Positions 1 to 13,100 of a stretch of 64,000 nt of DNA are shown one piece after another. The stretch lies in assembly GCA_965234725.1 (NCBI GenBank), contig CBDDUX010000008.1, positions 1 to 64,000 of the forward strand, written 5' to 3'. The DNA comes from Thermoplasmatota archaeon. Its GTDB lineage: Archaea > Thermoplasmatota > Penumbrarchaeia > Penumbrarchaeales > Penumbrarchaeaceae. A model generated the notes under the pieces. It worked only from the letters and a program-made list of their open reading frames with translations, ran no database searches and was not told where the DNA came from. Position 1 is the first letter of the stretch; every line of letters starts with the position of its first letter. A program made the translations under genes and the position numbers.

Positions 1-63
1 GTCAAATATTAAAATGTGGTCAAATCAGTGGTTAAACTGTCAAAGTCGGGTTGTAGTAAAATT

Positions 64-534
64 CTAATAATGTTCCACATTGTGTATTTGGAACTTATTC
101 TTACTGTTCTTTTCAACCAATGTCCTAATTTCCTTTTGGAGGTTTCGGTGATAATTCATTCCAAGGAGAGTACTTGTTCCTGCACCAGCTGCGGCTCCTA
201 TTGCAGTACCAATAACTGGTACAACACTTCCGGCAATAGCTCCTCCAGTTGCAGGTCCAATCATGTTATTAAACCAGGATCCAGTGTGTACTTCAACAAC
301 AAAATCATCTTTTTCTCCTGTTATTGTAAATGTCACCTCTCTAAGTGCTCCAACAAATGCTCTCGGAACGCTTTTCCTGATAGCTACTATTGTCTTAAAA
401 GGTATTCCATCATTATCACCCTCCAATTCATTTACAATATCCAAATCCTTTTGGGACTGGAGTTCTGTTTTCATTCCATTATATACGCCGTTCAAATTCG
501 TGTTTAAATCCCTATAATGCTTTACAAATTGCAT
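64..534 (-). CDS. Hypothetical protein with a Gly/Ala-rich glycine-zipper-like hydrophobic segment
   Basis: 156-aa ORF with an AAGGAGG ribosome-binding site upstream; segment GPATGGAIAGSVVPVIGTAIGAAAGAG. Confidence 0.75.
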   Translation of the reverse strand: MQFVKHYRDLNTNLNGVYNGMKTELQSQKDLDIVNELEGDNDGIPFKTIVAIRKSVPRAFVGALREVTFTITGEKDDFVVEVHTGSWFNNMIGPATGGAIAGSVVPVIGTAIGAAAGAGTSTLLGMNYHRNLQKEIRTLVEKNSKNKFQIHNVEHY

Positions 535-844
535 CGTTTTTACCCTCCTTTAATCAAATAATTTCATTTCAGCTTTGTACCTTTTTTAATAAATATTTCC
601 ATTAGTACAACACTCTCAGAAGAATATGAACTTATTATATTGATTTCATAATTAGTTACAAGATTGATATTAATCTAATGCAAATCAAAGTGGTTCCGAA
701 TCTGGACAAAGACGGCAATTGTAAAGAATAATTCTTACAAGGGATTCACAGGAATCAAGGACTTTCAGGAGCTCTTCGAAGACGAAGAGGAAATTTTTTG
801 AAGTGAAAAGTAGTTCCGAGAATTAGTCATGAGAGGAAATCAAG

Positions 845-1597
845 ATGTATGAAGAGAATAGAGACTTCTTTCAAGCATTATGTTATTTCCTGGGACAAGA
901 AGATATCCAAACCGTTGATGAGTTATTAGATTACATTTCAAAAAGAACCTTCAAAGACCATCACGTGAAGAATGTAATATATCAATATTTAAGAAAAGTT
1001 GGAAAACAAAGACCTGAGCATAAAGAGAAGATCTCAAAAAAACTCGATATATTCAAGAAAACTAAATTCAAGAATTTCTTCATACACCTTAATGGTACAT
1101 TTTACAATCATGGAAACTTAACAAGCAATATAGAATTATTTGTGAATCAGAAATTGATATATAAAGGAAAAGCAGATATTCGTTTGAAAAATATCAAAAG
1201 AGCACTCACTGAAAATATTTCAATAGATTTGGATTTGAAAAAGAAAAATCCAAGATTTAGACATGGCACGAATCCAATATTCAGATTTGGAACATGTGAT
1301 CTTCACTGTTGTGCGTCAATTCTTTTATGGGAAATCAAACATATTTATGATGAACAAATCCTGATTGAGAAAATCTATTTGTATGCTCCACATTATCCTA
1401 ATGACCAGTCAAAAAATCTTTCTGGTCCAGTTATGATAACAATATCTGACCTTGAGAGTGAATTGAAGAGAATCCAAAGGATCAATGATCTATCAAAGAT
1501 TTATGGAATTGACGTTAAATGGAAAAAATCTTCGAGAAAAGGACAGAGATGTAGTTGGATTGGATACCTTGATACACCTTATGAAGGATTAAAGTAA
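845..1597 (+). CDS. Hypothetical protein (AT-rich island)
   Basis: 250-aa open frame in AT-rich DNA with GAGAGG upstream; no family recognised. Confidence 0.65.
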   Translation: MYEENRDFFQALCYFLGQEDIQTVDELLDYISKRTFKDHHVKNVIYQYLRKVGKQRPEHKEKISKKLDIFKKTKFKNFFIHLNGTFYNHGNLTSNIELFVNQKLIYKGKADIRLKNIKRALTENISIDLDLKKKNPRFRHGTNPIFRFGTCDLHCCASILLWEIKHIYDEQILIEKIYLYAPHYPNDQSKNLSGPVMITISDLESELKRIQRINDLSKIYGIDVKWKKSSRKGQRCSWIGYLDTPYEGLK

Positions 1598-1616
1598 AAT
1601 CAAATCATTTTCCCAA

Positions 1617-1633
1617 TCCAGCCCGAAGAGGAA
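1617..1633 (+). repeat. Intergenic motif copy A (TCCAGCCCGAAGAGGAA)
   Basis: TCC-N10-GGAA about 20 bp after the stop at 1597; same motif recurs in the following spacers. Confidence 0.6.
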
Positions 1634-1701
1634 AACATCATATCAAATGGAAGAAATTAGTGAAGTACTGGAATGTATAATTGAATTTAAGGAGTAATTG
1701 T

Positions 1702-2154
1702 ATGGAAATAATAAAAGTTATGGATAATAAAGATAAATATATGGACTTATTGCTATTAGGTGATGAACAGGAAAGTATGGTAAAAAAATATCTCTACAGA
1801 GGTGAATTATTTGCCTTATTTGATAATGATTTAAAAACGGTCTCTGTTGTAACACAAGAAAATGAGGAAATATATGAAATCAAGAATATAGCAACATATG
1901 AGAAATATCAGAGGAAAGGATATGGAAGTATTATGGTAAAATATATAATAGAAAACATAAAAAATAAAGGCAAACAATTATTGATTGGTACAGGAGAAAG
2001 TGATAATATAATTGCTTTTTATAAAAAATTTGGTTTTAAATATTCCCATACAATAAAGGATTTTTTTATAGATAATTATGATCATAAAATGTATGAAAAT
2101 GGAAAACAATTAAAAGATATGATATATTTAAAAATAGATTTTAAAAGTGTATGA
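1702..2154 (+). CDS. GNAT family N-acetyltransferase
   Basis: Acetyl-CoA motif YQRKGYG, plus LLLLGDE and FYKKFGF; AAGGAG RBS before ATG 1702; very AT-rich. Confidence 0.9.
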   Translation: MEIIKVMDNKDKYMDLLLLGDEQESMVKKYLYRGELFALFDNDLKTVSVVTQENEEIYEIKNIATYEKYQRKGYGSIMVKYIIENIKNKGKQLLIGTGESDNIIAFYKKFGFKYSHTIKDFFIDNYDHKMYENGKQLKDMIYLKIDFKSV

Positions 2155-2183
2155 AAATAAATAGATCATTAATGATATCGATT

Positions 2184-2200
2184 TCCACCCAATAATGGAA
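2184..2200 (+). repeat. Intergenic motif copy B (TCCACCCAATAATGGAA)
   Basis: TCC-N10-GGAA between two convergent genes. Confidence 0.65.
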
Positions 2201-2204
2201 AATA

Positions 2205-2600
2205 TCATCGAATTTTCCCTTGTAATTGACTCTTAAAATTTTTATTGAAAGAGTATTTCTTAATTGATCCTGTCTTTGGATATTCAATCATATTTTCTTC
2301 AAAAATTTGGAGATAATCTTTGAGTAAGAAATAATTTCCAGGTCTAATAGACCAATTTGAGGCTCTAATACAAACTTCTGTTTGATTATTTGATATTTTA
2401 AAGAACTTAATCTTCACTTTCGTGGGCCATTCCATTAAAGCATTTGCGGGATCTTCTTTGAATGAAAATAACTTACAAATGATAACTTCATCATTCTCAC
2501 TAGATATACTCCAATTTATTTCACTAAAAATCAATTTAGAATTATTAAAACATGAATTTGTATCAAGATCAATTTTAAATTTCGTTGTGAAGATGACCAT
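2205..2600 (-). CDS. Hypothetical protein
   Basis: AT-rich open frame; ATG 2600 preferred because the longer ORF runs through the poly-G/inverted-repeat element. Confidence 0.55.
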   Translation of the reverse strand: MVIFTTKFKIDLDTNSCFNNSKLIFSEINWSISSENDEVIICKLFSFKEDPANALMEWPTKVKIKFFKISNNQTEVCIRASNWSIRPGNYFLLKDYLQIFEENMIEYPKTGSIKKYSFNKNFKSQLQGKIR

Positions 2601-2646
2601 TAGAACTATATCAATAAAAATATAGTTAATACCTTTTCTTCCGCTA

Positions 2647-2663
2647 TCCACCCGAGAAAGGAA
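2647..2663 (+). repeat. Intergenic motif copy C (TCCACCCGAGAAAGGAA)
   Basis: TCC-N10-GGAA upstream of the minus-strand gene, same orientation as A and B. Confidence 0.65.
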
Positions 2664-2733
2664 CGGATCGAGAACAAAATTGAGGGGGGGGGGGATAACG
2701 GGTGTCTGGGGAGGACATTGGGATCTCGATCCG
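2664..2733. repeat. GC-rich inverted-repeat element enclosing a G11 tract
   Basis: CGGATCGAGA (2664-2673) and TCTCGATCCG (2724-2733) are perfect 10-bp inverted repeats; G run at 2684-2694; small internal TGTC/GACA hairpin. Confidence 0.65.
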
Positions 2734-2804
2734 CAAACCATAAAACGATTGAATTATTATTTAACAAACAAGATATTATTTCGTTTTAGAAAAAATAACA
2801 GAGA

Positions 2805-2821
2805 TCCGCCCATAATTGGAA
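2805..2821 (+). repeat. Intergenic motif copy D (TCCGCCCATAATTGGAA)
   Basis: TCC-N10-GGAA, closely similar to copy B. Confidence 0.65.
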
Positions 2822-2895
2822 TGATCTAACATATACCGAGAATATATAGCATATTGGTAGAAACCATTATAAAGTCACAACTCAAAAGAAGTATC

Positions 2896-3069
2896 ATGAA
2901 TGCACAATGTCCCTCCTGCGAATCAAAAATAATATCCTTCACAAAAAATGACCTAACAAGTAACAAAGTTTTTTCTTGTATTGATTGTGGAAATGAATGG
3001 AATATGTCCGTATATACAAACCCACCTAAGAAATCATTATTGAAATCATTTTTCGGATTGTACAACTAA
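2896..3069 (+). CDS. Small zinc-ribbon protein
   Basis: 57 aa with CPSC...CIDC pairs. Confidence 0.5.
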   Translation: MNAQCPSCESKIISFTKNDLTSNKVFSCIDCGNEWNMSVYTNPPKKSLLKSFFGLYN

Positions 3070-3094
3070 TATATTGAGAAGTTTAAACACCACT

Positions 3095-3111
3095 TCCCAC
3101 CAAAAGAGGCA
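3095..3111 (+). repeat. Intergenic motif copy E (TCCCACCAAAAGAGGCA)
   Basis: TCC-N10-GGCA, one arm mismatch, about 25 bp after the stop at 3069. Confidence 0.5.
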
Positions 3112-3286
3112 ATCATTTAGGAACATGTTATTGACATCTTCAAGGTTTTTCTTATGATTCTATTGGTCGTTTCCGACTTGCGTACGTTTTTCGCAAGAAT
3201 CGCACTTAAAGATCAATTCCCATATCCACATTGTAAATGAGAACCAAGATAAAATATCATGAGGTCCTGATCCTCTGCGGATTGAT

Positions 3287-3757
3287 ATGGACCTGATAGT
3301 ACGTGAAGCAGCAATGGAGGACCTCCCGGGAATAAAGAAACTGATCGAGGGGGTCTTTGATGAAAAAGTGGCCCATCTCTACTCTGAAGAAGGTGTAAGG
3401 ACCTTCAAGGGGTACATAGAACTCGGTAAGATGCAGGAGAGAATGAAAAGGAACTACTGGGCCCTTATCGCTGAGAACAAGGACCTCGAGATCATCGGCA
3501 CGATCTTCTTCAAGGACCGTAACCACATCAATCTGTTCTTCGTAAGGGCCGATCTTGAATGGAAAGGGGTGGGAAAGGCCCTCCTTGAAAAGGCAGTCAA
3601 GATCTCAATGGAGGAGGACCCCTCCCTCCAGAGAATTACGGTCAACTCTTCACCCAACTCGCTTGAGGTCTACAAAAAGATGGGTTTCAAACCAGTTGAC
3701 AAGGAGAAGGTCCTCCACGGTATCAGGTTCATCCCCATGAGCAGGATCATACCTTGA
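3287..3757 (+). CDS. GNAT family N-acetyltransferase
   Basis: LFFVRADLEWKGVGKALL and TVNSSPNSLEVYKKMGF; host-like base composition starts here. Confidence 0.9.
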   Translation: MDLIVREAAMEDLPGIKKLIEGVFDEKVAHLYSEEGVRTFKGYIELGKMQERMKRNYWALIAENKDLEIIGTIFFKDRNHINLFFVRADLEWKGVGKALLEKAVKISMEEDPSLQRITVNSSPNSLEVYKKMGFKPVDKEKVLHGIRFIPMSRIIP

Positions 3758-4334: not shown

Positions 4335-5837
4335 ATGGAGATGAAGAAATTCGGCTTCGACGGACTCGAGGACGTAAAGGAAACACTGAGGAAGGATCCG
4401 GATATCAGGTTCATAAGGTTCATGACTGCAGATATGAACGGTGAAAGACCCTGCGGTTTCACAATACCTGTATCCGAACTGGGGAGTCATATCAGGTCGG
4501 ATGGTACCTTGGACCTGCTGAAGGAAACGAAGATAGACGGGATTCTGAAAGGATTCGATGCTTCATCACTTTACCCTGAACGGATCAATGAATCCGACAA
4601 GAACGCCTCTCTCGATTTCACAACGGCCAGGGTCCTTCCATGGTACTATCAGACCAAGGTCGGAGGGTATGACAGGAGATGGAGGGAGTTGGTTGTCTTC
4701 GGAGATATCATGGACCCAAAGAACGGACGATACAAGTTCGACTCCAGGTCCATACTGAAAAGAACCCTTGAAAAGGTCAGTGAACTGGGGATCGCTGACA
4801 CCGTTTACATCGGACCAGAACTGGAATTCTTCCTTTTCGAGGCCGATGAGACCGGGTATCCTGTTCTGGAGGAGTTCTTTGTGGACGACTGCAGATATCT
4901 GAAGCCAAAACCGGTGGACAAGGGCAGATACTTCAAAGGAGGAAGGTACGGAGAGATCCGAAAGGAGGCCCAGATGCTACTCCAGGATATGGGTTATCGC
5001 TCCGAGTATGACCATCACGAGGTATCGGAAAGTCAACACGAGATAGATCTCCACTACCTTCCGGCCCTGGAGATGGCCGACCTTGTGATGTTGTACAGAT
5101 ACATCATCAAGAAGGTGGCATCTTCCCACGGTCTATTCGCCTCTTTCATGCCCAAACCCATTGCCGGGATAAACGGAACAGGTATGCACACCCATCAATC
5201 CCTCTTCAAGGATGGAAAGAATATTTTCTACGATGAGAGCGATCAAAATCACCTCTCTATGGAATGCAAGAGCTACATCGCAGGGTTGATGAAGTATGTC
5301 CCTGAGATCACAGCCTCCATGAATCCATGGGTGAACTCATTCAAGCGCCTTGTTCCCGGATTTGAAGCTCCAGCATACATCTGTTTTGATATCCAGAACA
5401 GGTCGTCCCTCATCAGAATACCTGGCTACGATCAGAACAATCCCGAAGCTATCAGGATAGAACTCCGCAATCCCGATCCCTCATGCAATCCTTACATTGC
5501 ATTCTCCCTTCAGATCATGGCCGGTATTTCTGGAATTAGAGAGAAGATGGCTCCTCCAGAGATCAGGGACCTGAACATCTTCGAACTAACAGATGCAGAG
5601 ATGGAAGAATACGGGATAGCAAGGCTACCGGCCGACCTCGGGTCTGCCCTTGATCTCATGGAAGGGAGCTCCCTTGCTAGTGAGGTTCTGGGTGCCAGTT
5701 TCCTTGAACACTACATCAATGCAAAAAGGGTCCATCTCAAAGGATATTTAGACTCTCTCGGACACCGGATCAACGATTCATCGATGAAGGTCCAGATATC
5801 CAGATTCGAGGTAGAGGAGCTGCTCCCAATCCTTTAG
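4335..5837 (+). CDS. glnA: Glutamine synthetase family protein (type I)
   Basis: GFDASS, GPELEFFLF, HHEV..SQHEI, FMPKPIAGINGTGMHTHQSL, NSFKRLVPGFEAP, RIELRNPDPSCNPY; start could be 4326, 4335 or 4341. Confidence 0.9.
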   Translation: MEMKKFGFDGLEDVKETLRKDPDIRFIRFMTADMNGERPCGFTIPVSELGSHIRSDGTLDLLKETKIDGILKGFDASSLYPERINESDKNASLDFTTARVLPWYYQTKVGGYDRRWRELVVFGDIMDPKNGRYKFDSRSILKRTLEKVSELGIADTVYIGPELEFFLFEADETGYPVLEEFFVDDCRYLKPKPVDKGRYFKGGRYGEIRKEAQMLLQDMGYRSEYDHHEVSESQHEIDLHYLPALEMADLVMLYRYIIKKVASSHGLFASFMPKPIAGINGTGMHTHQSLFKDGKNIFYDESDQNHLSMECKSYIAGLMKYVPEITASMNPWVNSFKRLVPGFEAPAYICFDIQNRSSLIRIPGYDQNNPEAIRIELRNPDPSCNPYIAFSLQIMAGISGIREKMAPPEIRDLNIFELTDAEMEEYGIARLPADLGSALDLMEGSSLASEVLGASFLEHYINAKRVHLKGYLDSLGHRINDSSMKVQISRFEVEELLPIL

Positions 5838-6050: not shown

Positions 6051-7763
6051 ATGTTCAATCTGGAAATGGGATCTATAGGGCCAGGAAAAGCTAGCAGATC
6101 AATAACTATCATCTCCATCATTATTTTCATTACAATCAACCTGGCAGGTGGCACAGATGCCCAGGAAAAAGAAGAACTGGATATAATCTACTACTCAAAC
6201 AGTCCGTTTATCTACAAAACCGGAGAAAACCAGGTTGGGGGAATTGCGGTAGACATCATTTCTCCCCTACTCGAAGACAAAGGATATGGTCTTGTTTACA
6301 GGGAGATCCAACTCAATACATTTTCAGGAGAACTTGAGGAAGGGGGAGGAGATCTGCTTCTTGGATGCAATATCCAAAAAGATATCGAGGAAAACATCAC
6401 ATTCTCGGAAGAATCCATCTATTCCAATTGGGGGATCCTCTATTCAAACAAGGAATTCAAGGTATCGACAATCTTGGATCTGCATAAGAGCTGGATAGGT
6501 GTAGTAAAGGATGATATATACTATAACGGAGCAAACGGTTTGGAACATCTTCTTATCAGCTTCGGAATAGAGCCTTTCATTGTAGAGTTCGGTAACTATC
6601 AGGAGGTTGTCGAATCCATTGAGGATGGTGATGTGGATGTGGGCCTCCTCAACGCAGCCCTGGGAATGAGATTGGAGAATGACAGGGATATTAAAAGAAC
6701 ATCAGTCATATTCTCACCAATCGATATAGGAATGGCAGTAAATCAGGAAAAAATCGAGATGGTGGACCTTCTTAACGATCTGGACAAAGATATAGGAAGA
6801 ATGAAGGACGATCCTGATTCCAACTACTATACCACACTTGACCGCTATCTGGAGAATGAAAACAAGAGACCTGAAAAGGTGGTGATTCCAGGATGGCTCT
6901 TAAGGACCACCCTGATCCTCTTAGCATCTGTGGTCCTCCTTTGTGGAATTGCCCTCTTCCTCAGGGGAAAGGTAAGGTCAAGGACCCGGGAACTTGAAAA
7001 CACGAACTTAATGCTGCAAAATGATATCACGAAGAGGGAGAAAGTGGAATTGGAGCTTACAGATGAGAAGAACCGTTCCGTATTTTACCTTGATCTTCTC
7101 ATCCATGACATCGGCAATATCCACCAGGGTCTATTAAGTCATATCCAGCTTCATGAATTATTGAAAGGGGATCATGAAAAAGGCGAGAGGAATATCAAGC
7201 AGATGGCAGACCTCATGCAAAGGTCCCAGGTCCTGGTGAGGAACGTTAATAAGTTTACAGAAGCTGTCGGTCCAGAGAGGAAATTGGAACCAGTGGATAT
7301 TAAGCCGGTGATCATAGATTCACTCAGAACAGCGGTCCTTTCCACTCCTCAGATTGATATCGAGACGGAAACAGATCTGCTGGAAGGAGAGATCATGGTT
7401 AACTGTGGTCCTCTGATCGAGGACCTTTTCTACAATCTGTTTCATAACGCTGTTAAGTTCCACGATGGCCCCAAAGGAAAAATTGAAGTATCAGTCAGAG
7501 AAGAGGATAACGGCAAATGGTATGGAATCATGATATCAGATCATGGAAGGGGAATTCCCGATCATATGAAAGAGACCATATTCTCAAGGTTGGAGAGATC
7601 CACGGAGAGAAAGCATAGAGGGATGGGGTTAACACTTGTTAAGGTCCTGGTCAGAAGGTATGGTGGGACCATTGAGGTTGATGACAGGGTTTCGGGAGAT
7701 CACAGCAAAGGAGCCATCTTCAAGCTCAGGCTTCCAGTTTTAGATGAACGATCCACTTCATAA
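6051..7763 (+). CDS. Membrane sensor histidine kinase with an extracellular family-3 solute-binding domain
   Basis: Signal/TM segment, SBP-like domain, second TM, H-box LIHDIGN, N-box NLFHNAVKF, DHGRGI, GMGL; start uncertain. Confidence 0.88.
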   Translation: MFNLEMGSIGPGKASRSITIISIIIFITINLAGGTDAQEKEELDIIYYSNSPFIYKTGENQVGGIAVDIISPLLEDKGYGLVYREIQLNTFSGELEEGGGDLLLGCNIQKDIEENITFSEESIYSNWGILYSNKEFKVSTILDLHKSWIGVVKDDIYYNGANGLEHLLISFGIEPFIVEFGNYQEVVESIEDGDVDVGLLNAALGMRLENDRDIKRTSVIFSPIDIGMAVNQEKIEMVDLLNDLDKDIGRMKDDPDSNYYTTLDRYLENENKRPEKVVIPGWLLRTTLILLASVVLLCGIALFLRGKVRSRTRELENTNLMLQNDITKREKVELELTDEKNRSVFYLDLLIHDIGNIHQGLLSHIQLHELLKGDHEKGERNIKQMADLMQRSQVLVRNVNKFTEAVGPERKLEPVDIKPVIIDSLRTAVLSTPQIDIETETDLLEGEIMVNCGPLIEDLFYNLFHNAVKFHDGPKGKIEVSVREEDNGKWYGIMISDHGRGIPDHMKETIFSRLERSTERKHRGMGLTLVKVLVRRYGGTIEVDDRVSGDHSKGAIFKLRLPVLDERSTS

Positions 7764-8363
7764 TCCGGAAAGATCCTCAAGATCCTTGGCGAGCAGGACC
7801 TTGCTGGTCCTCTTCTGATTTCCAAGTGTATCTTCGATGGCAGGGCCATAATCATGCCCGGGTAGCACAAGGAGGTCATCAGGAAGTCCTTTTAACCTCT
7901 GAAGTGTTGTAAACATTTCCTTGATGCTCCCTCCCGGTAGATCGCATCTACCGCAATCTCCGATGAACATAGTGTCCCCTGTAACGAGATACCTGCCATC
8001 TGCTATCAGACAGATCCCACCGGGAGTATGCCCAGGTGTCTCAAGGAACTCCAGAGCACTATCTCCAACCTCCAACTTAGAACCCTCGGATACTATGATA
8101 TCAGCACCACTCACCTTCTCCGAACAGTACATGCTTGATACCGATCTCGCTCCAGTTTTTTTAATTACTTCCCTCATGGAGGATGAGTGGTCACCATGGT
8201 GATGGGTTAACACAACATATCTGAGTTCTAGTCCCTCTTCTTCAAGCCAGGAAAGTACACTGGAGGGATCATATCCGGGATCGATCAGGACCGCATCCTT
8301 TTTTTCGTGAAAAATATAGCTAAGATTGTCCTGCCCTACTACGAACCTCTTCATTTCTAGCAT
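7758..8363 (-). CDS. MBL-fold metallo-hydrolase (glyoxalase II-like)
   Basis: THHHGDH, TPGHTPG, TGDTMF, PGHDY. Confidence 0.92.
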   Translation of the reverse strand: MLEMKRFVVGQDNLSYIFHEKKDAVLIDPGYDPSSVLSWLEEEGLELRYVVLTHHHGDHSSSMREVIKKTGARSVSSMYCSEKVSGADIIVSEGSKLEVGDSALEFLETPGHTPGGICLIADGRYLVTGDTMFIGDCGRCDLPGGSIKEMFTTLQRLKGLPDDLLVLPGHDYGPAIEDTLGNQKRTSKVLLAKDLEDLSGL

Positions 8364-8417
8364 GATACCTGAGATATCGATGGCTAACTTTATCTTTACC
8401 CTTACTCTTGGTTGAAC

Positions 8418-9059
8418 ATGGATATTGGTCCCCCATCCACAATAGAACTTGATACGGAGATCATCTCCTCCTTCCCAAAGAGATCAAAGGTCCTGGAGAT
8501 CGCATGTGCCCATGGCAGGACAGCTTTCATAATGGAATCAATGGATCATATCGTAACGGCACTGGACATTGACCCAGCCGCTATTCACAACTCCAGGGAG
8601 TTCGGACTATCAAGGGGTAGCTCAGTCAAATTCGTAGTTGGGGATGGAAGAAAACTTCCATTCCACAGTTCTCTGTTCGATATTGTCTTGATGAACGGAT
8701 ACATGACAATGTTGACCGATAGTGAGTCGAGAGAACGATCGATCGAGGAAGCTTCAAGGGTATTGAAAGAGGGCGGGACCCTGTACCTGGCCGATTTCCT
8801 CCAAACCGATGATTCCGATATCTACCGTCAAAGGTACGAAAGACATTTCAAGATCACCGGGGAGGACCATACGTTCATAGTTACGGATACCGGAATGGAT
8901 GACGGAAATGAGCTATACAGATGCCACCATTACCTTGAATCGGAGCTGAGGTCCCTTCTGGTATCCCATTTCGATATATTGGAGTCTAAAAAGCAGGTGT
9001 TCACAAGCTTCCATGGTAATAACGTCAATGGCATCATCATCTTGGCGGTCAAGAAATGA
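8418..9059 (+). CDS. Class I SAM-dependent methyltransferase
   Basis: VLEIACAHGR motif I, ALDID, GDGRKLPF, RVLKEGG. Confidence 0.88.
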   Translation: MDIGPPSTIELDTEIISSFPKRSKVLEIACAHGRTAFIMESMDHIVTALDIDPAAIHNSREFGLSRGSSVKFVVGDGRKLPFHSSLFDIVLMNGYMTMLTDSESRERSIEEASRVLKEGGTLYLADFLQTDDSDIYRQRYERHFKITGEDHTFIVTDTGMDDGNELYRCHHYLESELRSLLVSHFDILESKKQVFTSFHGNNVNGIIILAVKK

Positions 9060-9113
9060 GATATCCAGGCTTTCCTCGAATGGAATAAATACCTCGCCTC
9101 TCTTTTGGAAGAC

Positions 9114-10136
9114 ATGGCCTCGGTCAAGGATTGGCTCCAGTTATTCAGAAGCCATACCTCTCCACTGGAGATGACCATAACGATCACCGGTTCCGCATTG
9201 GCCGTTGGAACCATTTTTGATATCAGGGTATTGTTCTTCCTGTTCTTCGGGTGGCTCTACCACAATGCTGGCTACGGCCAGAACTCTGTAGAAGATTTCC
9301 TTGGCGGTTTCGATAGGAATGATCCGAACAAGAGACACCATCCGCTTCAAAGGGGCGTGATAGACCCTGTATTTGCAAGGAATATATGCCGGTTCCTGAT
9401 AGTGATCCTATTCATCTATGGAGTGGTGATCTCGAATTTCGACCTGCTCTCAATTATTCTTCTAGCGACCCTGATCGGTATGGGGATAATCTACAACCTG
9501 TTCAACAAAGAGCTGACAGGGAAATTCATCCCGATCGCATTGGCCCATTCCCTTCTTCTTCCCTTTGTTTACTTCGGGTCTGGTGGTACCATCGACATAT
9601 CAGCCACCGCTCCCTACATATCCGGACCGGAAACACGCGCAGCAATATTGCTCTGGGGATATCTTCTGCTCCAGGTGATCTATCAGATAATGATAGAAGG
9701 GGACCTCAAGGATATCGATATGGACGAGGCATCCATGCTTCGGTCCCTGGGAGTATATGTGAGGGATGGGATTTTGTACTGCTCCAGACTTGCAAGGGGG
9801 GTATCATTCTTCCTGAAGGCCTCCTCCATCATGATATTATTCCTGGTGCTATCGACTTTGAACGGTACTGTCGATAATTATATTGGAGCATTATTATTCT
9901 CTGCTGCCCTCCTTGCACTGGACCAAGGATTGATGGGTGCAGGACCGTGGGACCATTCAAAATGCCTTAAGAGAATGTCATTGATGGAAGTTACCTCGAC
10001 CTTTGCACTGGCAGTTGTCATCGCTCCGGTTATTGGAGGATGGATCCCGGCCTTGTTGATCATGGCCTTCAATATGATCTACTTCATCCTTATGAACAGG
10101 TTCCTGTGGGGGACCTTGATAAAACCAAGGGTCTAA
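9114..10136 (+). CDS. UbiA family prenyltransferase
   Basis: Multi-pass membrane protein; NSVED...FDRNDPNKRHHPL and DLKDIDMD acidic motifs. Confidence 0.8.
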   Translation: MASVKDWLQLFRSHTSPLEMTITITGSALAVGTIFDIRVLFFLFFGWLYHNAGYGQNSVEDFLGGFDRNDPNKRHHPLQRGVIDPVFARNICRFLIVILFIYGVVISNFDLLSIILLATLIGMGIIYNLFNKELTGKFIPIALAHSLLLPFVYFGSGGTIDISATAPYISGPETRAAILLWGYLLLQVIYQIMIEGDLKDIDMDEASMLRSLGVYVRDGILYCSRLARGVSFFLKASSIMILFLVLSTLNGTVDNYIGALLFSAALLALDQGLMGAGPWDHSKCLKRMSLMEVTSTFALAVVIAPVIGGWIPALLIMAFNMIYFILMNRFLWGTLIKPRV

Positions 10137-13100
10137 AGGTATCTATCGTCACGATTGTACTTGATCTCCGGAAGAAGCATATCCGTTATATCTTCAACAG
10201 AGTCCTTTATATCCACGTCAAGGGCCTTTGCAAGATCCTTGAGTATCTCCCAGTTCTCCTTATGTGGGGAAAGCGCCTTATTTATCCTGCAAAGCCTTCG
10301 ATCTGTTGTAAGAACGGTCCCGTCATTCTCGTAGTTGACGGACCTGGGGATCACGACGTCAGCTTCCGGGAATGGGTCCAGAGTCCTCTGTATTGCAAGG
10401 AACCTGCATGATCTGGGTCGCTTGAAATCATCCGGAGGATAACCGAACATTAGAATGTTCTTTTTCGACAGGCCATCAAGTTCCCGAAGTGTGATCCTCT
10501 GAATGTTCAGGTCGCTGATGCCTTGGCTGTTGGACCCTCTTTTTAAAACTATCATCTGCGCTTCGGTTATTTGTTTGAATAGAGCTATGCGCCTGGATTC
10601 CTCTCGTCCAACCATCCCGAATATTATCAATCCATCATCAGATGAAAGTGTCTTTGCTAATTTTGCAAGGTCATCGTATGATTCTCCGGACCTCACCTCT
10701 ATGGCTTCCCTGGAAAGAACGGCAAGTTCGTTCAGGAGTTCCTGCTCGCTGTAATTGATCAGATCGTATGCCTGTCCTGATATCAGCTGCTCCCTGGAGG
10801 CGGTTGCTATGAGACCATCAAGGAAGCCTATGCCAGCGTGGTCCAGTGTCCTTGCCCCCTCTATCCTGTGGGGTTTGTCACCCACAATCAGTACATCCAC
10901 ACCATCATTTGCAGCCTGCCTTACCTTGACTCCTGCCACGGAGAACCTGTTCACGAGGTCGGTATTGTAAACCATTATCAGGTCCTGTTTATTGATATCA
11001 TCGAAGGTAATGGTGGAACCAGAATTCCCAAGGACAGGGGTAAGACCATCGCATGTCTCGTGATCGTCCACTATCAGGTAGATCTCCCCACCAAGCTTCC
11101 TCACGATCTCCCTTGCAATGAAAGCCTCTTCGTTGGTGCACGTCGGTCTGAGGATGATCTGAGGTTCTTCCTTCAACTTTTCTGCCATGCTGGATATGGC
11201 CTCAGACCATTTCATATCCTTCCAGATACTGTCCTTTTTCATTCTTGGAAGAGTGAATCTCCGGGGATCGTTCATCCATTCATAGTCGAACCTGCCTGTC
11301 TCGCACATGTGGATGTCGTTCCAGCCGTGTTCCTTGGGTGTTATCTTGTATATGATGTCATTGACGGTATGGACATTGATCGTGCATCCCACGGAGCATC
11401 TTGTGCACACAGAGTGTGTGACCTTGGATTTGAAAGGCCCTGGCCTCTCCAAAGGTATCTTCTCAGTAAGTGCCCCTACAGGACAGGCAGCCACACAATC
11501 TCCACAGGATATGCAATCTGTCTCGGAGAGGGGCTTGTCAAGTGCAGGTGCGATCCTGGCATCAAAACCTCTATCAACGAATCCGTAGACTGAGATCCCT
11601 CTGGACCTGTCGCATACCTCAACACACTTTCCGCATTTTACACACTTGTTCGCTTCCCTGAGAATGAACCTATGGCTATCATCCTTGGGGTGATCGTGTG
11701 TACCACCCATGAACCGTTGCGGGTCGATCTGGTAATCGTTCATATAGCCCTTCAGCTTGCATTCGAACAGGTCCTGACAACCACAGGACATGCACCTGGA
11801 GGCTTCTTCAATAGCTTCTTCTGGGGTGAATCCGAGGTCCACCTCAACGAAATTCCTCTTCCTTGCTTCAGGTTCAAGGAAACTGGGTTCCTTCCTTTCC
11901 TTCCTCAGAACATCCTTGAACAGTCCTTCGTGAACATTTCTCCTGGTGGAGACCACATCCTTCTCTGCAGGAAAGACCTCACCTCGAAGCATGCAGTCTA
12001 TAGCCTCAGATGCCTTTCTTCCCATGTATACCGCATCGACGACCAAAGATGGTCCCTTCACCAGGTCCCCGCCAGCAAAGACCTTCTTTCTATTGGTCTT
12101 GTAAATAGGCATCTTAACATTCACCGTTCCCCATTTGGTCTGGTCAACCTGCTCCTCGGAGATGATCCCCTTCTGGATGTCCTGTCCGATGGCCTTTATG
12201 ATCGTATCGGCTTTCAGTTCGAATTCCGAGCCATCGATGGGTCTCGGTCTTCTTCTACCAGTGTCATCCGGTTCTCCCAATTCCATCCTTATGCTTTTCA
12301 GAGCAAGGAGTTTTCCTTCCTCTATCCGAAATCCAATTGGTGCAGCCAGGAACTCGAAGCACACTCCTTCTTCCCTTGCATCGGTTATCTCCGCATCCTC
12401 GGCTGGCATCTCATCCTCGGTCCTTCTGTAGAGTATGGTGGCATTGCACCCCATTCTGAGGGCCACCCTGGCTGCATCGATGGCAGTATTGCCTCCTCCG
12501 ACGACGATGACATCTTTTCCTATATGTGACGGTTTTCCCATTGCAACATCACATAGGTAATCGATCCCACCGATAACGGAGGGATGGTCCTCTCCTTCGA
12601 GTCTGAGGGATTTCGATCTCCAGGCCCCTATCCCAAGGAAAACGGCATCGTAGTCCTTTTCCAGGTCATCAAGGCGGACCTTATCTCCCAGTCTGTGATT
12701 GGTCCTGACCTCGATACCCAGACCGGTAATGGAGGCGATCTCCTTGTCCAGGATCCTTTTCGGCAGTCTGTATTCGGGGATACCATAGCGCAACATTCCT
12801 CCCAGTGCCGGCATCTGATCGAATATTGTAACAGCATGCCCGCTCAGTCTCAGGTAATATGCGCAGGATAGACCGGCAGGTCCTCCGCCGACCACCGCGA
12901 TCCTTTTTCCCGTATCATGAGGGATCTCCGGCATGAAAGGACCGTTTTCCAGGTCCCAGTCTGACACGAATCTCTTCAGGTTCTTTATGGATATGGGTTT
13001 ATCGACATTTTCACGCCTGCAGTCATCTTCACAGGGGTGCGGACAGACCCTTCCAAGGGATGCCGGGAGGGGGATCCTCCTTCTGAGGATCTCTATTGAT

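Follow-up and report, generated by a model that had tools for sequence, protein, structure and literature searches.

Small unrelated genes in an AT-rich island of a Thermoplasmatota archaeon are separated by a repeated short directional site. The units between the sites behave as modules that can be separated, and the site is where their similarity to other genomes breaks off. The last of the five copies is not free-standing: it is the 5' edge of a conserved element, here called the anchor, that fixes such islands in several genera. Because gene units in related genomes are cut exactly at the site, it most likely marks the place where a DNA-joining enzyme stacks and swaps units. At a probability of about 0.5, we read the copies as att-type sites of small integrative elements that were stacked by a non-tRNA anchor and have decayed to cassette-like units.

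A directional site repeated in an AT-rich island

A pattern search of the window (the whole stretch of 64,000 nucleotides analysed here) placed five motif copies on the plus strand, at 1617, 2184, 2647, 2805 and 3095, in the single orientation that an earlier note on this DNA had described. The copies lie in a foreign-looking island of 29-34% GC; the GC content of 0.28-0.35 on this side gives way to 0.45 at the composition boundary that had been claimed near 3240. The interval contents are also those listed before: a GNAT gene (+), a hypothetical gene (-), a non-coding hairpin element and a Zn-ribbon gene (+). The island is made up as follows.

64-534, minus strand: ORF of 156 aa with a glycine-zipper-like C-terminal part; outermost island gene on the contig, GC 0.345
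845-1597, plus strand: ORF of 250 aa, no known family; its stop lies 20 nt ahead of copy 1
1617-1633, plus strand: motif copy 1, left boundary of the GNAT unit
1634-2183, plus strand: GNAT unit, a promoter-like leader and an acetyltransferase gene (1702-2154)
2184-2200, plus strand: motif copy 2, with the best inverted arms
2205-2600, minus strand: ORF of 131 aa, no known family; the sole opposite-strand unit
2647-2663, plus strand: motif copy 3, heading the non-coding unit
2664-2804, plus strand: non-coding unit with a 10-bp stem (2665-2674 / 2724-2733) and a G11 run
2805-2821, plus strand: motif copy 4, about 75 nt upstream of the Zn-ribbon gene; the weakest copy
2896-3069, plus strand: Zn-ribbon gene, 57 aa, with sub-threshold zinc-ribbon Pfam matches only
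3095-3111, plus strand: motif copy 5, 5' edge of the anchor element
3095-3207, plus strand: conserved non-coding anchor, about 115 nt (nhmmer E 1.1e-26 against the family profile)

The GNAT gene matches Pfam Acetyltransf_7 (E 1.5e-9), and its stop codon is 50 nt from that of the next gene. The outermost ORF has sub-threshold Pfam matches only (DUF1269, 20.8 bits against a cut-off of 26.9); among 24 family genomes, the 250-aa ORF has no DNA match and the 131-aa ORF has no match elsewhere. A 178-aa reading of the latter, from 2741, is not preferred because it crosses copy 3 and the G-run, and the 131-aa reading from the ATG at 2600 was taken instead. The non-coding unit folds over its whole stretch no better than shuffles do (z -0.06) and has no Rfam match in a scan of the island. 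The units have conserved leaders with TATA-like and SD-like sequences and their genes point toward the anchor; a repeat search found no terminal inverted repeats or target duplications flanking them. At the edge of the window (1-53) lies an IS-like repeat that adjoins unrelated sequence at seven of seven contig ends. A tie between this repeat and the motif was rejected, the motif being found within 330 nt at one contig end alone (C43).

In the strict form TCCNNCCNNNNNNGGMA, the motif occurs eight times in the window against 2.6 expected, a number reached by none of 100 shuffles; the loose form TCC-N10-GGAA is not enriched across the window (29 against 23, with 15 of 100 shuffles getting to 29). 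Within the island (54-3240), there are five copies on the plus strand and none on the minus strand. The larger per-strand count in 20,000 first-order Markov simulations of the island had a maximum of 2 and a mean of 0.02, a generous figure because the pattern was defined after the copies had been seen. A weight-matrix scan served as an independent control, with a matrix built from nine copies on other contigs and none from the window array. The five window copies are its top five island positions on both strands (25.1, 16.6, 15.8, 15.1 and 8.4), ahead of the next unrelated position at 4.8. The score of 8.4 belongs to copy 4, whose leave-one-out score is 3.1. Three supposed eroded copies at 701, 776 and 3225 could not be upheld, for the same matrix scores them at background level (-1.1, 0.2 and -3.9). 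Genome-wide there are 132 strict matches, eight of them in low-GC DNA, and five of those eight are the window array; the motif is thus not a genome-wide site upstream of core genes.

The consensus of 25 copies has inverted arms of 3-7 bp, a spacer of 8-11 nt and an extra TTCC block some 4-9 nt upstream of the C-run. That upstream block makes the site longer than had been claimed. An ATC noted downstream is present in all five window copies and is not retained across the wider set of 25. The best inverted arms are those of copy 2, at 7 bp with an 8-nt spacer between them, and this copy alone folds better than shuffles in a test of the copies, weakly (-8.4 kcal/mol, z -1.9) and as a hairpin with a bulge. 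Copy 2 is flanked by convergent genes, and copy 3 stands on the plus strand upstream of a minus-strand gene; motif orientation is thus independent of gene direction, as the note had argued. Copies 1, 2 and 5 sit 20-30 nt past a plus-strand stop codon, and copies 1 and 4 sit 69-75 nt ahead of a start codon.

Could the copies be no more than a chance likeness among short stretches, some C-rich and others rich in purines, within AT-rich DNA between genes? A short and degenerate motif, a loose form that is not enriched in the window and a pattern drawn up with the copies in view would all suit that explanation. We find it scarcely credible when five copies stand in an island where 0.02 are expected, an independent matrix finds the same five positions, similarity to other genomes ends on the copies and a conserved element of five genera begins with this very site.

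Units recur singly and similarity ends at the site

The GNAT, non-coding and Zn-ribbon units recur singly in other genomes, each time with different neighbours. In comparisons at 81% identity or more, seven of eight similarity ends lie within 2 nt of a motif copy. A binomial test, run as seven of nine against an intergenic-only null, gave P 6e-5 for ends that are not all independent.

The GNAT unit is 95% identical to a sequence in the sister species (G004:C9), with similarity running from 1626 to 2200, and 89% identical to one in G003 (C45), from 1625 to 2159; the neighbours differ in both cases and 2159 is the one miss. Host flanks are just 73-75% identical to those of G003, against 89% for the unit. 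In a contig of sequencing run X2 the match begins at 1619 and a third, different sequence lies upstream. The right half of copy 1 and the next 70 nt accompany the GNAT gene in three genomes; G036 and G028 have more distant GNAT homologues (61-68% identity), beside which the motif is absent.

The non-coding unit matches G004:C5:14125-14272 at 81% identity, with ends at 2648 and 2803 and other genes flanking it there, and in two more contigs, from run X1, the match begins at 2648 after another upstream sequence. The unit is present in multiple copies in the source metagenome, with a depth in run X1 about six times that of adjacent bins; a 22-nt pattern taken from it had no match in public contig collections. 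Homologues of the Zn-ribbon gene are found in seven of the 24 family genomes at non-syntenic positions. The right half of copy 4 and the bases that follow it are retained upstream of the homologue in G014, which belongs to another genus, and three to four of nine homologue loci have a motif-like sequence past the stop. Cross-genus Zn-ribbon alignments (73-76% identity) end 25-75 nt from a copy and were omitted from the breakpoint count because alignment ends at such divergence are not breakpoints.

A second array was found in the sister species (G004:C5), where three co-oriented copies bound a non-coding unit with a 211-aa gene, and a putative antitoxin with a ParE toxin. There is no recombinase within about 4 kb of the G004:C9 array. 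The assembled contigs of the sequencing runs, which are uninformative on excision, contained no joint, deletion form or circle. The earlier note had offered a choice between a capture system and the footprints of one mobile element: the units are indeed separable, and the two alternatives are not really exclusive here.

Transposition in the usual sense is an improbable source of this pattern. A MITE, an IS200/IS605-type single-strand transposon or a Tn7-kind target-specific inserter might recognise the anchor and leave an end sequence at each insertion. Co-orientation, the bulged hairpin of copy 2 and one-sided insertion do recall orientation-specific transposition, and the roughly six-fold depth of the non-coding unit would suit a multiplying element. 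Yet the genome, at 97.65% completeness, has no Y1 (HUH) transposase (0 matches to PF01797), the units lack terminal inverted repeats and target duplications, only copy 2 folds beyond shuffles, and that weakly, and the IS-like repeat is near the motif at one of its seven contig ends (C43).

A conserved anchor bounds the islands on one side

The anchor starts with the motif, which is followed by a TATA-like box, then by a CTCAAGGG block and then by a second site of the TTTCC type. It is present in five genera, with eight copies in G000 (E<=1e-7), three in G004, one in G003 and the rest in four other genera. Synteny between G000 and G004 stops at the first bases of the anchor in both of two orthologous loci (C38:4644 and C54:2642), and the DNA on its 5' side is variable and mostly AT-rich. 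Of the 15 copies with both flanks on the contig, 13 have a lower GC on the 5' flank, one of them marginally; no AT-rich DNA lies 5' of the anchor at C7 or at C110. In many cases a contig end is no more than a few kb from the copy, and one contig breaks off exactly at the motif.

Rfam scans of the island and five anchor loci returned no family for the anchor, the sole match being a tRNA, and ARAGORN detected no tRNA at the C8 locus or at three other anchor loci, the upstream end of the island being off the contig. RNAalifold placed only three pairs in a consensus fold of 13 copies. At the second site there is a hairpin with compensating changes between genera, as judged by eye, which is not retained in G000-type copies. 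A small protein encoded on the minus strand of the anchor was considered and rejected because its frame relative to the conserved bases varies between genera. A 23-nt anchor pattern occurred in three contigs of one genome only in a scan of public genome contigs, and nowhere in public metagenome contigs.

The anchor lies ahead of a co-oriented gene in at least five of the ten copies examined and faces a convergent gene in at least four. Its promoter-like layout, with a co-oriented gene downstream, means that a regulatory role also fits. The motif and the anchor might then be a portable linker, a set of transcription signals carried with horizontally acquired genes (a 3' terminator or insulator, and the promoter element of the next unit) and shuffled by homologous or illegitimate recombination. 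The TATA-like box and the conserved block stand at archaeal-promoter distances, a spacing that we take to be an archaeal promoter layout. The positions of copies 1, 2 and 5 just past stops and of copies 1 and 4 before starts would follow, as would the movement of the right half of copy 1, with 70 nt, alongside the GNAT gene in three genomes. We nevertheless consider such a linker, the chief competing account, possible but unlikely, for it does not account for the loss of synteny at the first bases of the anchor in two of two loci, nor for the one-sided variable DNA (13 of 15) and the assembly breaks there. Nor does it sit well with the orientation of copies 2 and 3 independently of the genes, or with a motif that does not stand ahead of core genes genome-wide. 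Archaeal terminators are oligo-T runs, unlike this motif.

A candidate recombinase family

The genome has seven tyrosine recombinases (PF00589). The ORF list and Pfam matches place none of them in the window region, as the earlier note had reported, and the wider search found a candidate family with members at other genomic loci and, in the sister species, at the far end of an island. That island (G004:C4) extends for at least 5.4 kb on the 5' side of an anchor and has an internal motif copy 1.56 kb out; at its far end is a small tyrosine recombinase gene, within the 5' part of which the contig stops. A homologous and intact integrase gene (G000:C64) carries a pair of motif-like sites with a spacing of 83 nt: the first precedes the ATG by about 30 nt, and the second, which is palindromic, falls in codons 10-20. 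The spacing is about equal to that in two anchor copies of G013 (84 nt; L062 and L063), and in G008:C33 it is about 100 nt. In the latter the anchor is directly upstream of an integrase gene, in the order integrase, anchor, motif, variable DNA. Weak anchor-like matches with a palindromic TTTCCG..CGGAAA lie 3' of integrase genes in G005 (E 0.006) and in G012 (E 0.011). A strong anchor adjoins one of seven integrase loci and a weak one adjoins two of seven, the C64 match having an E value of 0.79.

In genus g6, which has many anchor copies, none of seven genomes (MAGs 62-95% complete) has the integrase at E<=1e-15, and two integrases of the small family adjoin tRNA genes, as ordinary tRNA-targeting integrases do. 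The small integrase is about 200-250 aa long and consists of the catalytic domain alone, with PF00589 as the only Pfam match in the three members checked. A search for direct repeats of 12 nt or more around the C64 integrase island found none that was informative. Two XerA-like genes (C102 and C44) are 85% identical to each other and score 161-163 bits against a cut-off of 220. On these gene neighbourhoods and domain matches, the small tyrosine recombinase family is a candidate for the enzyme, with a loose link to the site.

None of the seven recombinases is of IntI grade, the best scoring 54.8 bits against a cut-off of 265 for TIGR02249. An integron or CALIN of the canonical kind, in which IntI moves attC-bounded cassettes, is in our view very improbable, even though the tandem, short and mostly co-oriented ORFs, the cassette-typical functions (GNAT, methyltransferase, toxin-antitoxin) and the units common to several arrays would all be at home in one, and archaeal integrons do exist (PMC9668308, in the available text). 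A search of positions 1-3300 found no RYYYAAC..GTTRRRY pair at 35-135 nt spacing on either strand, and the stop of the GNAT gene and that of the next gene leave just 50 nt between them, where attC sites are imperfect palindromes of 55-140 nt. Thermoplasmat* does not occur in the main text of the same paper, as far as that text is available. The earlier view that the site is neither attC nor an 11-6-11 dif site therefore stands, the arms and spacer of the 25-copy consensus also being different.

A model for growth and decay of the island

The reading to which we give about an even chance holds that the motif is the central part of a site-specific recombination site of the att type. The TTCC / GGAA inverted arms (3-7 bp) would flank a spacer that begins as a C-run and becomes A-rich, an asymmetry that would give the site a direction. 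Circular DNA units bearing the site would join the chromosome at an existing copy, by preference the one at the 5' edge of the ~115-nt anchor beside ordinary host genes. Each insertion would leave the new unit between two hybrid copies and shift older units outward, so that an AT-rich island would grow on one side of the anchor. A complete element would encode the small tyrosine recombinase for itself. Through decay, or where copies recombine with each other, there could then arise single-gene units that have no integrase (GNAT, methyltransferase, toxin-antitoxin pair, Zn-ribbon, non-coding piece), and these would be cassette-like and movable only by an enzyme from elsewhere in the cell.

Our observations are consistent with integrative elements that were stacked and decay into cassette-like units. 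We infer the cutting of the site here, by the small integrase or by another enzyme, together with the position of the crossover and the circles. Some features tell against an att-type site. Very short arms and quite divergent copies would make a weak recombinase target, the window island has no recombinase, and the units have promoter-like leaders of their own.

A more ambitious version of this model is offered tentatively. Thermoplasmatales-related archaea may possess a non-integron platform for gene capture, with the ~115-nt anchor as an attI-like element, a directional and hairpin-free attC-like site of 17-27 nt and a tyrosine recombinase consisting of the catalytic domain only that acts in trans. 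Such a platform would capture, stack and redistribute single-gene units across genera.

These findings bear on how uncultured archaea gain and lose accessory genes: the change in gene content between species and genera is marked by a short directional site together with an anchor that is not a tRNA. Published archaeal integrons use canonical bacterial-type attC sites, according to the available text (PMC9668308), and the word 'cassette' is absent from the available text of a review of archaeal tyrosine recombinases (PMC8371274). Our analysis yields a concrete search sequence, defined candidate enzymes and a means of setting the limits of flexible islands where MAGs are fragmented. A confirmed enzyme would represent a minimal recombinase that acts on a small target site.

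Comparison with known systems

Like integrons, the island is an array of small, mostly co-oriented single-gene units between directional sites; the same unit appears in different arrays with its ends in the site, and the conserved platform edge at which variable DNA starts resembles attI. The G008:C33 order of integrase, anchor, motif and variable DNA is integron-like as well. The island differs from integrons in having no integrase of the IntI type, with its extra domain, and no attC structure or core sequences, and in a candidate enzyme with the catalytic domain only (PF00589). Integron cassettes are promoterless and are read from a platform promoter; the units here have promoter-like leaders of their own and point toward the platform rather than away from it.

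Xer/dif sites are 28 bp long, and pdif sites have the 11-6-11 layout and alternate in orientation, whereas here the arms measure 3-7 bp, the spacer between them 8-11 nt, and all sites share one orientation. In the available text on Acinetobacter dif modules, accessory genes that include toxin-antitoxin pairs lie between short recombinase sites and depend on Xer (PMC6449649, PMC13141974). As those sources have it, dif modules too are small accessory units bounded by short sites with inverted arms and a central spacer, and their enzyme is encoded elsewhere; they are shuffled between replicons. The arrays described here are chromosomal islands beside an anchor, not parts of plasmid backbones.

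Closer in overall behaviour are elements that accumulate at one place. Prochlorococcus tycheposons, in the available text of the preprint, are stacked at a single attachment site, where integrases have decayed and att copies are scattered (bioRxiv 10.1101/2020.12.28.424599), and tandem integration and module exchange of integrated elements are described for archaea in the available part of the review (PMC8371274). On those accounts, our islands share with tycheposons and with tandem archaeal elements at tRNA genes a repeated insertion at one conserved point, an outward push, scattered att copies, integrase genes that are decayed or absent and surviving units of cargo. They differ in an anchor that is not a tRNA, is about 115 nt long and is present in several copies per genome, in a repeated site of only 17-27 nt with units down to 140-570 bp, and in that no replication module was seen here.

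The suicidal integrases of archaea carry a Phage_integr_3 domain, according to the available text of that review (PMC8371274). The small integrase family is unlike these SSV-type enzymes in that it has PF00589 only, without Phage_integr_3 (PF16795), in three members. In SSV-type elements attP lies within the int gene, and int(N) and int(C) pieces stand at the two element ends. The small family may resemble them in the motif-like palindromic site within codons 10-20 of the G000:C64 integrase gene. The anchor itself resembles the upstream region and first codons of such a gene, ending at the second site (the profile match to the start of the C64 gene is not significant, E 0.79), and the G004:C4 integrase stands at the far end of its island, with the contig stopping in the equivalent codons.

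Setting and enrichment of the motif

Genome G000 comprises 3.54 Mb in 114 contigs with 45.4% GC, and the window covers the initial 64 kb of its contig C8. GC content is 28-35% in bases 1-3240, the island, against 42-53% in the remainder. The window opens with a repeat end of 50-53 bases that is common to seven contig ends, and the island is therefore interrupted by an assembly break. At those seven ends the repeat borders unrelated sequences, some of low and some of normal GC, and in the probable source run it is covered about 25 times as deeply as neighbouring bins. Bases 1-53 are the terminus of a multi-copy repeat, probably an insertion sequence with a body that is missing from the bin.

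The TCC-N10-GGAA-type motif is present at 1617, 2184, 2647, 2805 and 3095, on the + strand in all five cases, as an earlier note had reported, and the intervals hold what it described: a GNAT gene, a minus-strand ORF, a non-coding unit and a Zn-ribbon gene. The specific pattern occurs eight times in the 64-kb window where 2.6 are expected, a count reached in none of 100 shuffles; the bare TCC-N10-GGAA string is not enriched there (29 observed, 23 expected). The island has five copies on one strand, compared with a mean of 0.02 for the larger per-strand count in 20,000 simulations. When both strands of the island were scored with an independent weight matrix, built solely from nine copies on other contigs, the window copies took ranks 1-5, copy 4 being weak (score 8.4). 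The three 'eroded copies' that the note had also proposed scored at background level. Alignment of 25 copies from two species gave a longer site, consisting of a TTCC block, 3-5 bases, a C-run, an A-rich run and GG(A/C)A; this consensus layout rules out a dif-type site. Of the five, copy 2 alone has long arms and a somewhat better fold than its shuffled versions.

Units are shared one by one between genomes

The GNAT unit (1626-2200) is 95% identical to a unit in the sister species (G004:C9), where a methyltransferase gene lies upstream and unrelated DNA downstream, in an array between surface-protein genes. Over 1625-2159 it is 89% identical to G003:C45, where it sits at one edge of a 4.6-kb segment absent from G000. 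Host genes adjoining the island are just 73-75% identical between G000 and G003, so that the unit is either a recent transfer or under unusual constraint. In another sediment run the contig match begins at 1619, with a third kind of upstream sequence.

The non-coding unit (2648-2803) shares 81% identity with G004:C5, and there too it is headed by the site. In the probable source run it is covered about six times as deeply as neighbouring sequence, and the match of two contigs begins at 2648. Its G11 run (2684-2694) is four bases shorter in one contig of that run and much shorter in the G004 copy.

In these close comparisons of the two units, seven of eight ends of similarity are no more than 2 nt from a copy; the sole miss is the right end of the GNAT unit in G003, at 2159. 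A conservative binomial test, taking 7/9 and an intergenic-only null, gives P = 6e-5, for ends that are not independent. Homologues of the Zn-ribbon gene occur at non-syntenic places in 7/24 family genomes. In G014 the right half of copy 4 is preserved in the flanks, along with a motif and an anchor-like sequence 3' of the stop; a motif of any kind is found there at only 3-4 of nine loci.

A second array, on G004:C5, has three co-oriented copies; its units are the non-coding unit with a 211-aa gene, and a putative antitoxin with a ParE toxin:

L040 (locus from G004:C5), 4681-5360, - strand: antitoxin/toxin unit; a 79-aa ORF that occupies the antitoxin position and belongs to no Pfam family, with a ParE-family toxin gene.

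This unit lies exactly between two copies, which share about 25 more bases and a small hairpin 3' of the motif. In another family of the class (L081, from G036:C202) a GNAT gene 68% identical has on either side a short direct repeat of a different sequence, about 10 bases long, which may be another type of unit boundary.

A conserved anchor begins at copy 5

3095 to ~3207, + strand: anchor element, ~115 nt, non-coding, starting with copy 5.

The anchor runs from the motif through a TATA-like box and a CTCAAGGG block to a second TTTCC-type site, a perfect 11-bp hairpin with compensating changes in some genera. It matches no Rfam family, and its minus-strand reading frame is not conserved across genera. 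With nhmmer (E<=1e-7) there are eight copies in G000, three in G004 and one in G003. Four other genera also have homologous copies, with the first 16 bases identical letter for letter in several of their genomes. Among public contigs, the element is found only in ones titled 'uncultured Thermoplasmatales archaeon'.

A 25-codon ORF (3163-3240) begins within the anchor, its first 14 codons spanning the most conserved bases; its start codon is not conserved in the other anchor copies, those of C38, C54 and C81 having GTG or GCG. A second subtype (G000:C52:27114-27264, - strand; G000:C47:638-780, + strand) has the same motif at its start, a different middle and, about 250 nt downstream, another motif-like site; G013 has a related form.

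Variable DNA lies on one side. In both testable orthologous pairs, G000/G004 similarity spans host genes and anchor and ends at the anchor's first bases (C38:4644, C54:2642), beyond which the DNA is unrelated and AT-rich. At the place orthologous to the window's host-gene flank, G001 has a motif and G003 an anchor copy, and the AT-rich DNA upstream is different in each. Of 15 copies whose contig extends to both sides, 13 have lower GC 5' of the anchor, marginally so in one case; the exceptions are C7 and C110. Many copies lie close to contig ends, and one contig terminates on the motif itself. The window locus is not a tRNA-anchored array.

The motif and anchor could instead be a portable regulatory linker, a serious rival that we consider rather unlikely: the anchor looks promoter-like, a co-oriented gene often lies 3' of it, and the units have leaders of their own.

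Recombinases and the proposed site

G000 encodes seven tyrosine recombinases and one serine recombinase, and no Y1 transposase was found in it. An integron is ruled out, as none of the seven is integron-type and no attC-type core pair occurs in bases 1-3300. Two XerA-like genes of 310 aa (G000:C102:6775-7707 and G000:C44:20239-21171), 85% identical to each other, score 161-163 bits, below the curated XerA cut-off of 220; they may represent true paralogues or, in a bin with 2.5% contamination, two strains.

Beyond the anchor on G004:C4 the island extends at least 5.4 kb and has a motif copy inside it, 1.56 kb out. Its far end encodes an exonuclease, a small HTH protein and a tyrosine recombinase (at least 203 aa), within whose 5' part the contig breaks off:

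L038 (locus from G004:C4), 6583-11995: integrase-bearing island; a 152-aa RNase_T-type (DEDD) exonuclease, a 50-aa HTH-like protein and several small membrane proteins.

None of the genes in this island was recognised as a replication gene. The recombinase family (about 200-250 aa, catalytic domain only) is found in 7/24 family genomes; with only that domain, its make-up is not that of an SSV-type integrase. An intact member on G000:C64 has motif-like sites at -30 and at codons 10-20, 83 nt apart. G008:C33 reads tRNA-Ser, integrase, anchor, motif, contig end, and G005 and G012 have weak anchor-like matches with TTTCCG..CGGAAA palindromes 3' of an integrase gene. Three observations argue against a link between this enzyme and the site: genus g6 has many anchors and the family in none of seven genomes (E<=1e-15), four of seven small recombinase loci have no clear anchor, and the anchor profile match at G000:C64 is not significant.

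The layout, unit-wise sharing, one-sided variable DNA and integrase-bearing island suggest, with a probability of about 0.5, that the motif is a site-specific recombination site. Integrative elements would stack at the site beside the anchor and decay into cassette-like units. No recombination products were seen among the assembled contigs.

Comparison with known systems

A literature search on Thermoplasmatota integrases, genomic islands and hypervariable regions gave no account of such arrays, and the word Thermoplasmatota is absent from all the papers it listed. The archaeal integrons of PMC9668308 are, in its main text, canonical attC arrays; Thermoplasmat* is absent from that text, and the supplements may list more taxa. 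The word 'cassette' is absent from a review of archaeal tyrosine recombinases (PMC8371274). Stacking such as we propose is described for tandem archaeal elements in that review, and elsewhere for tycheposons.
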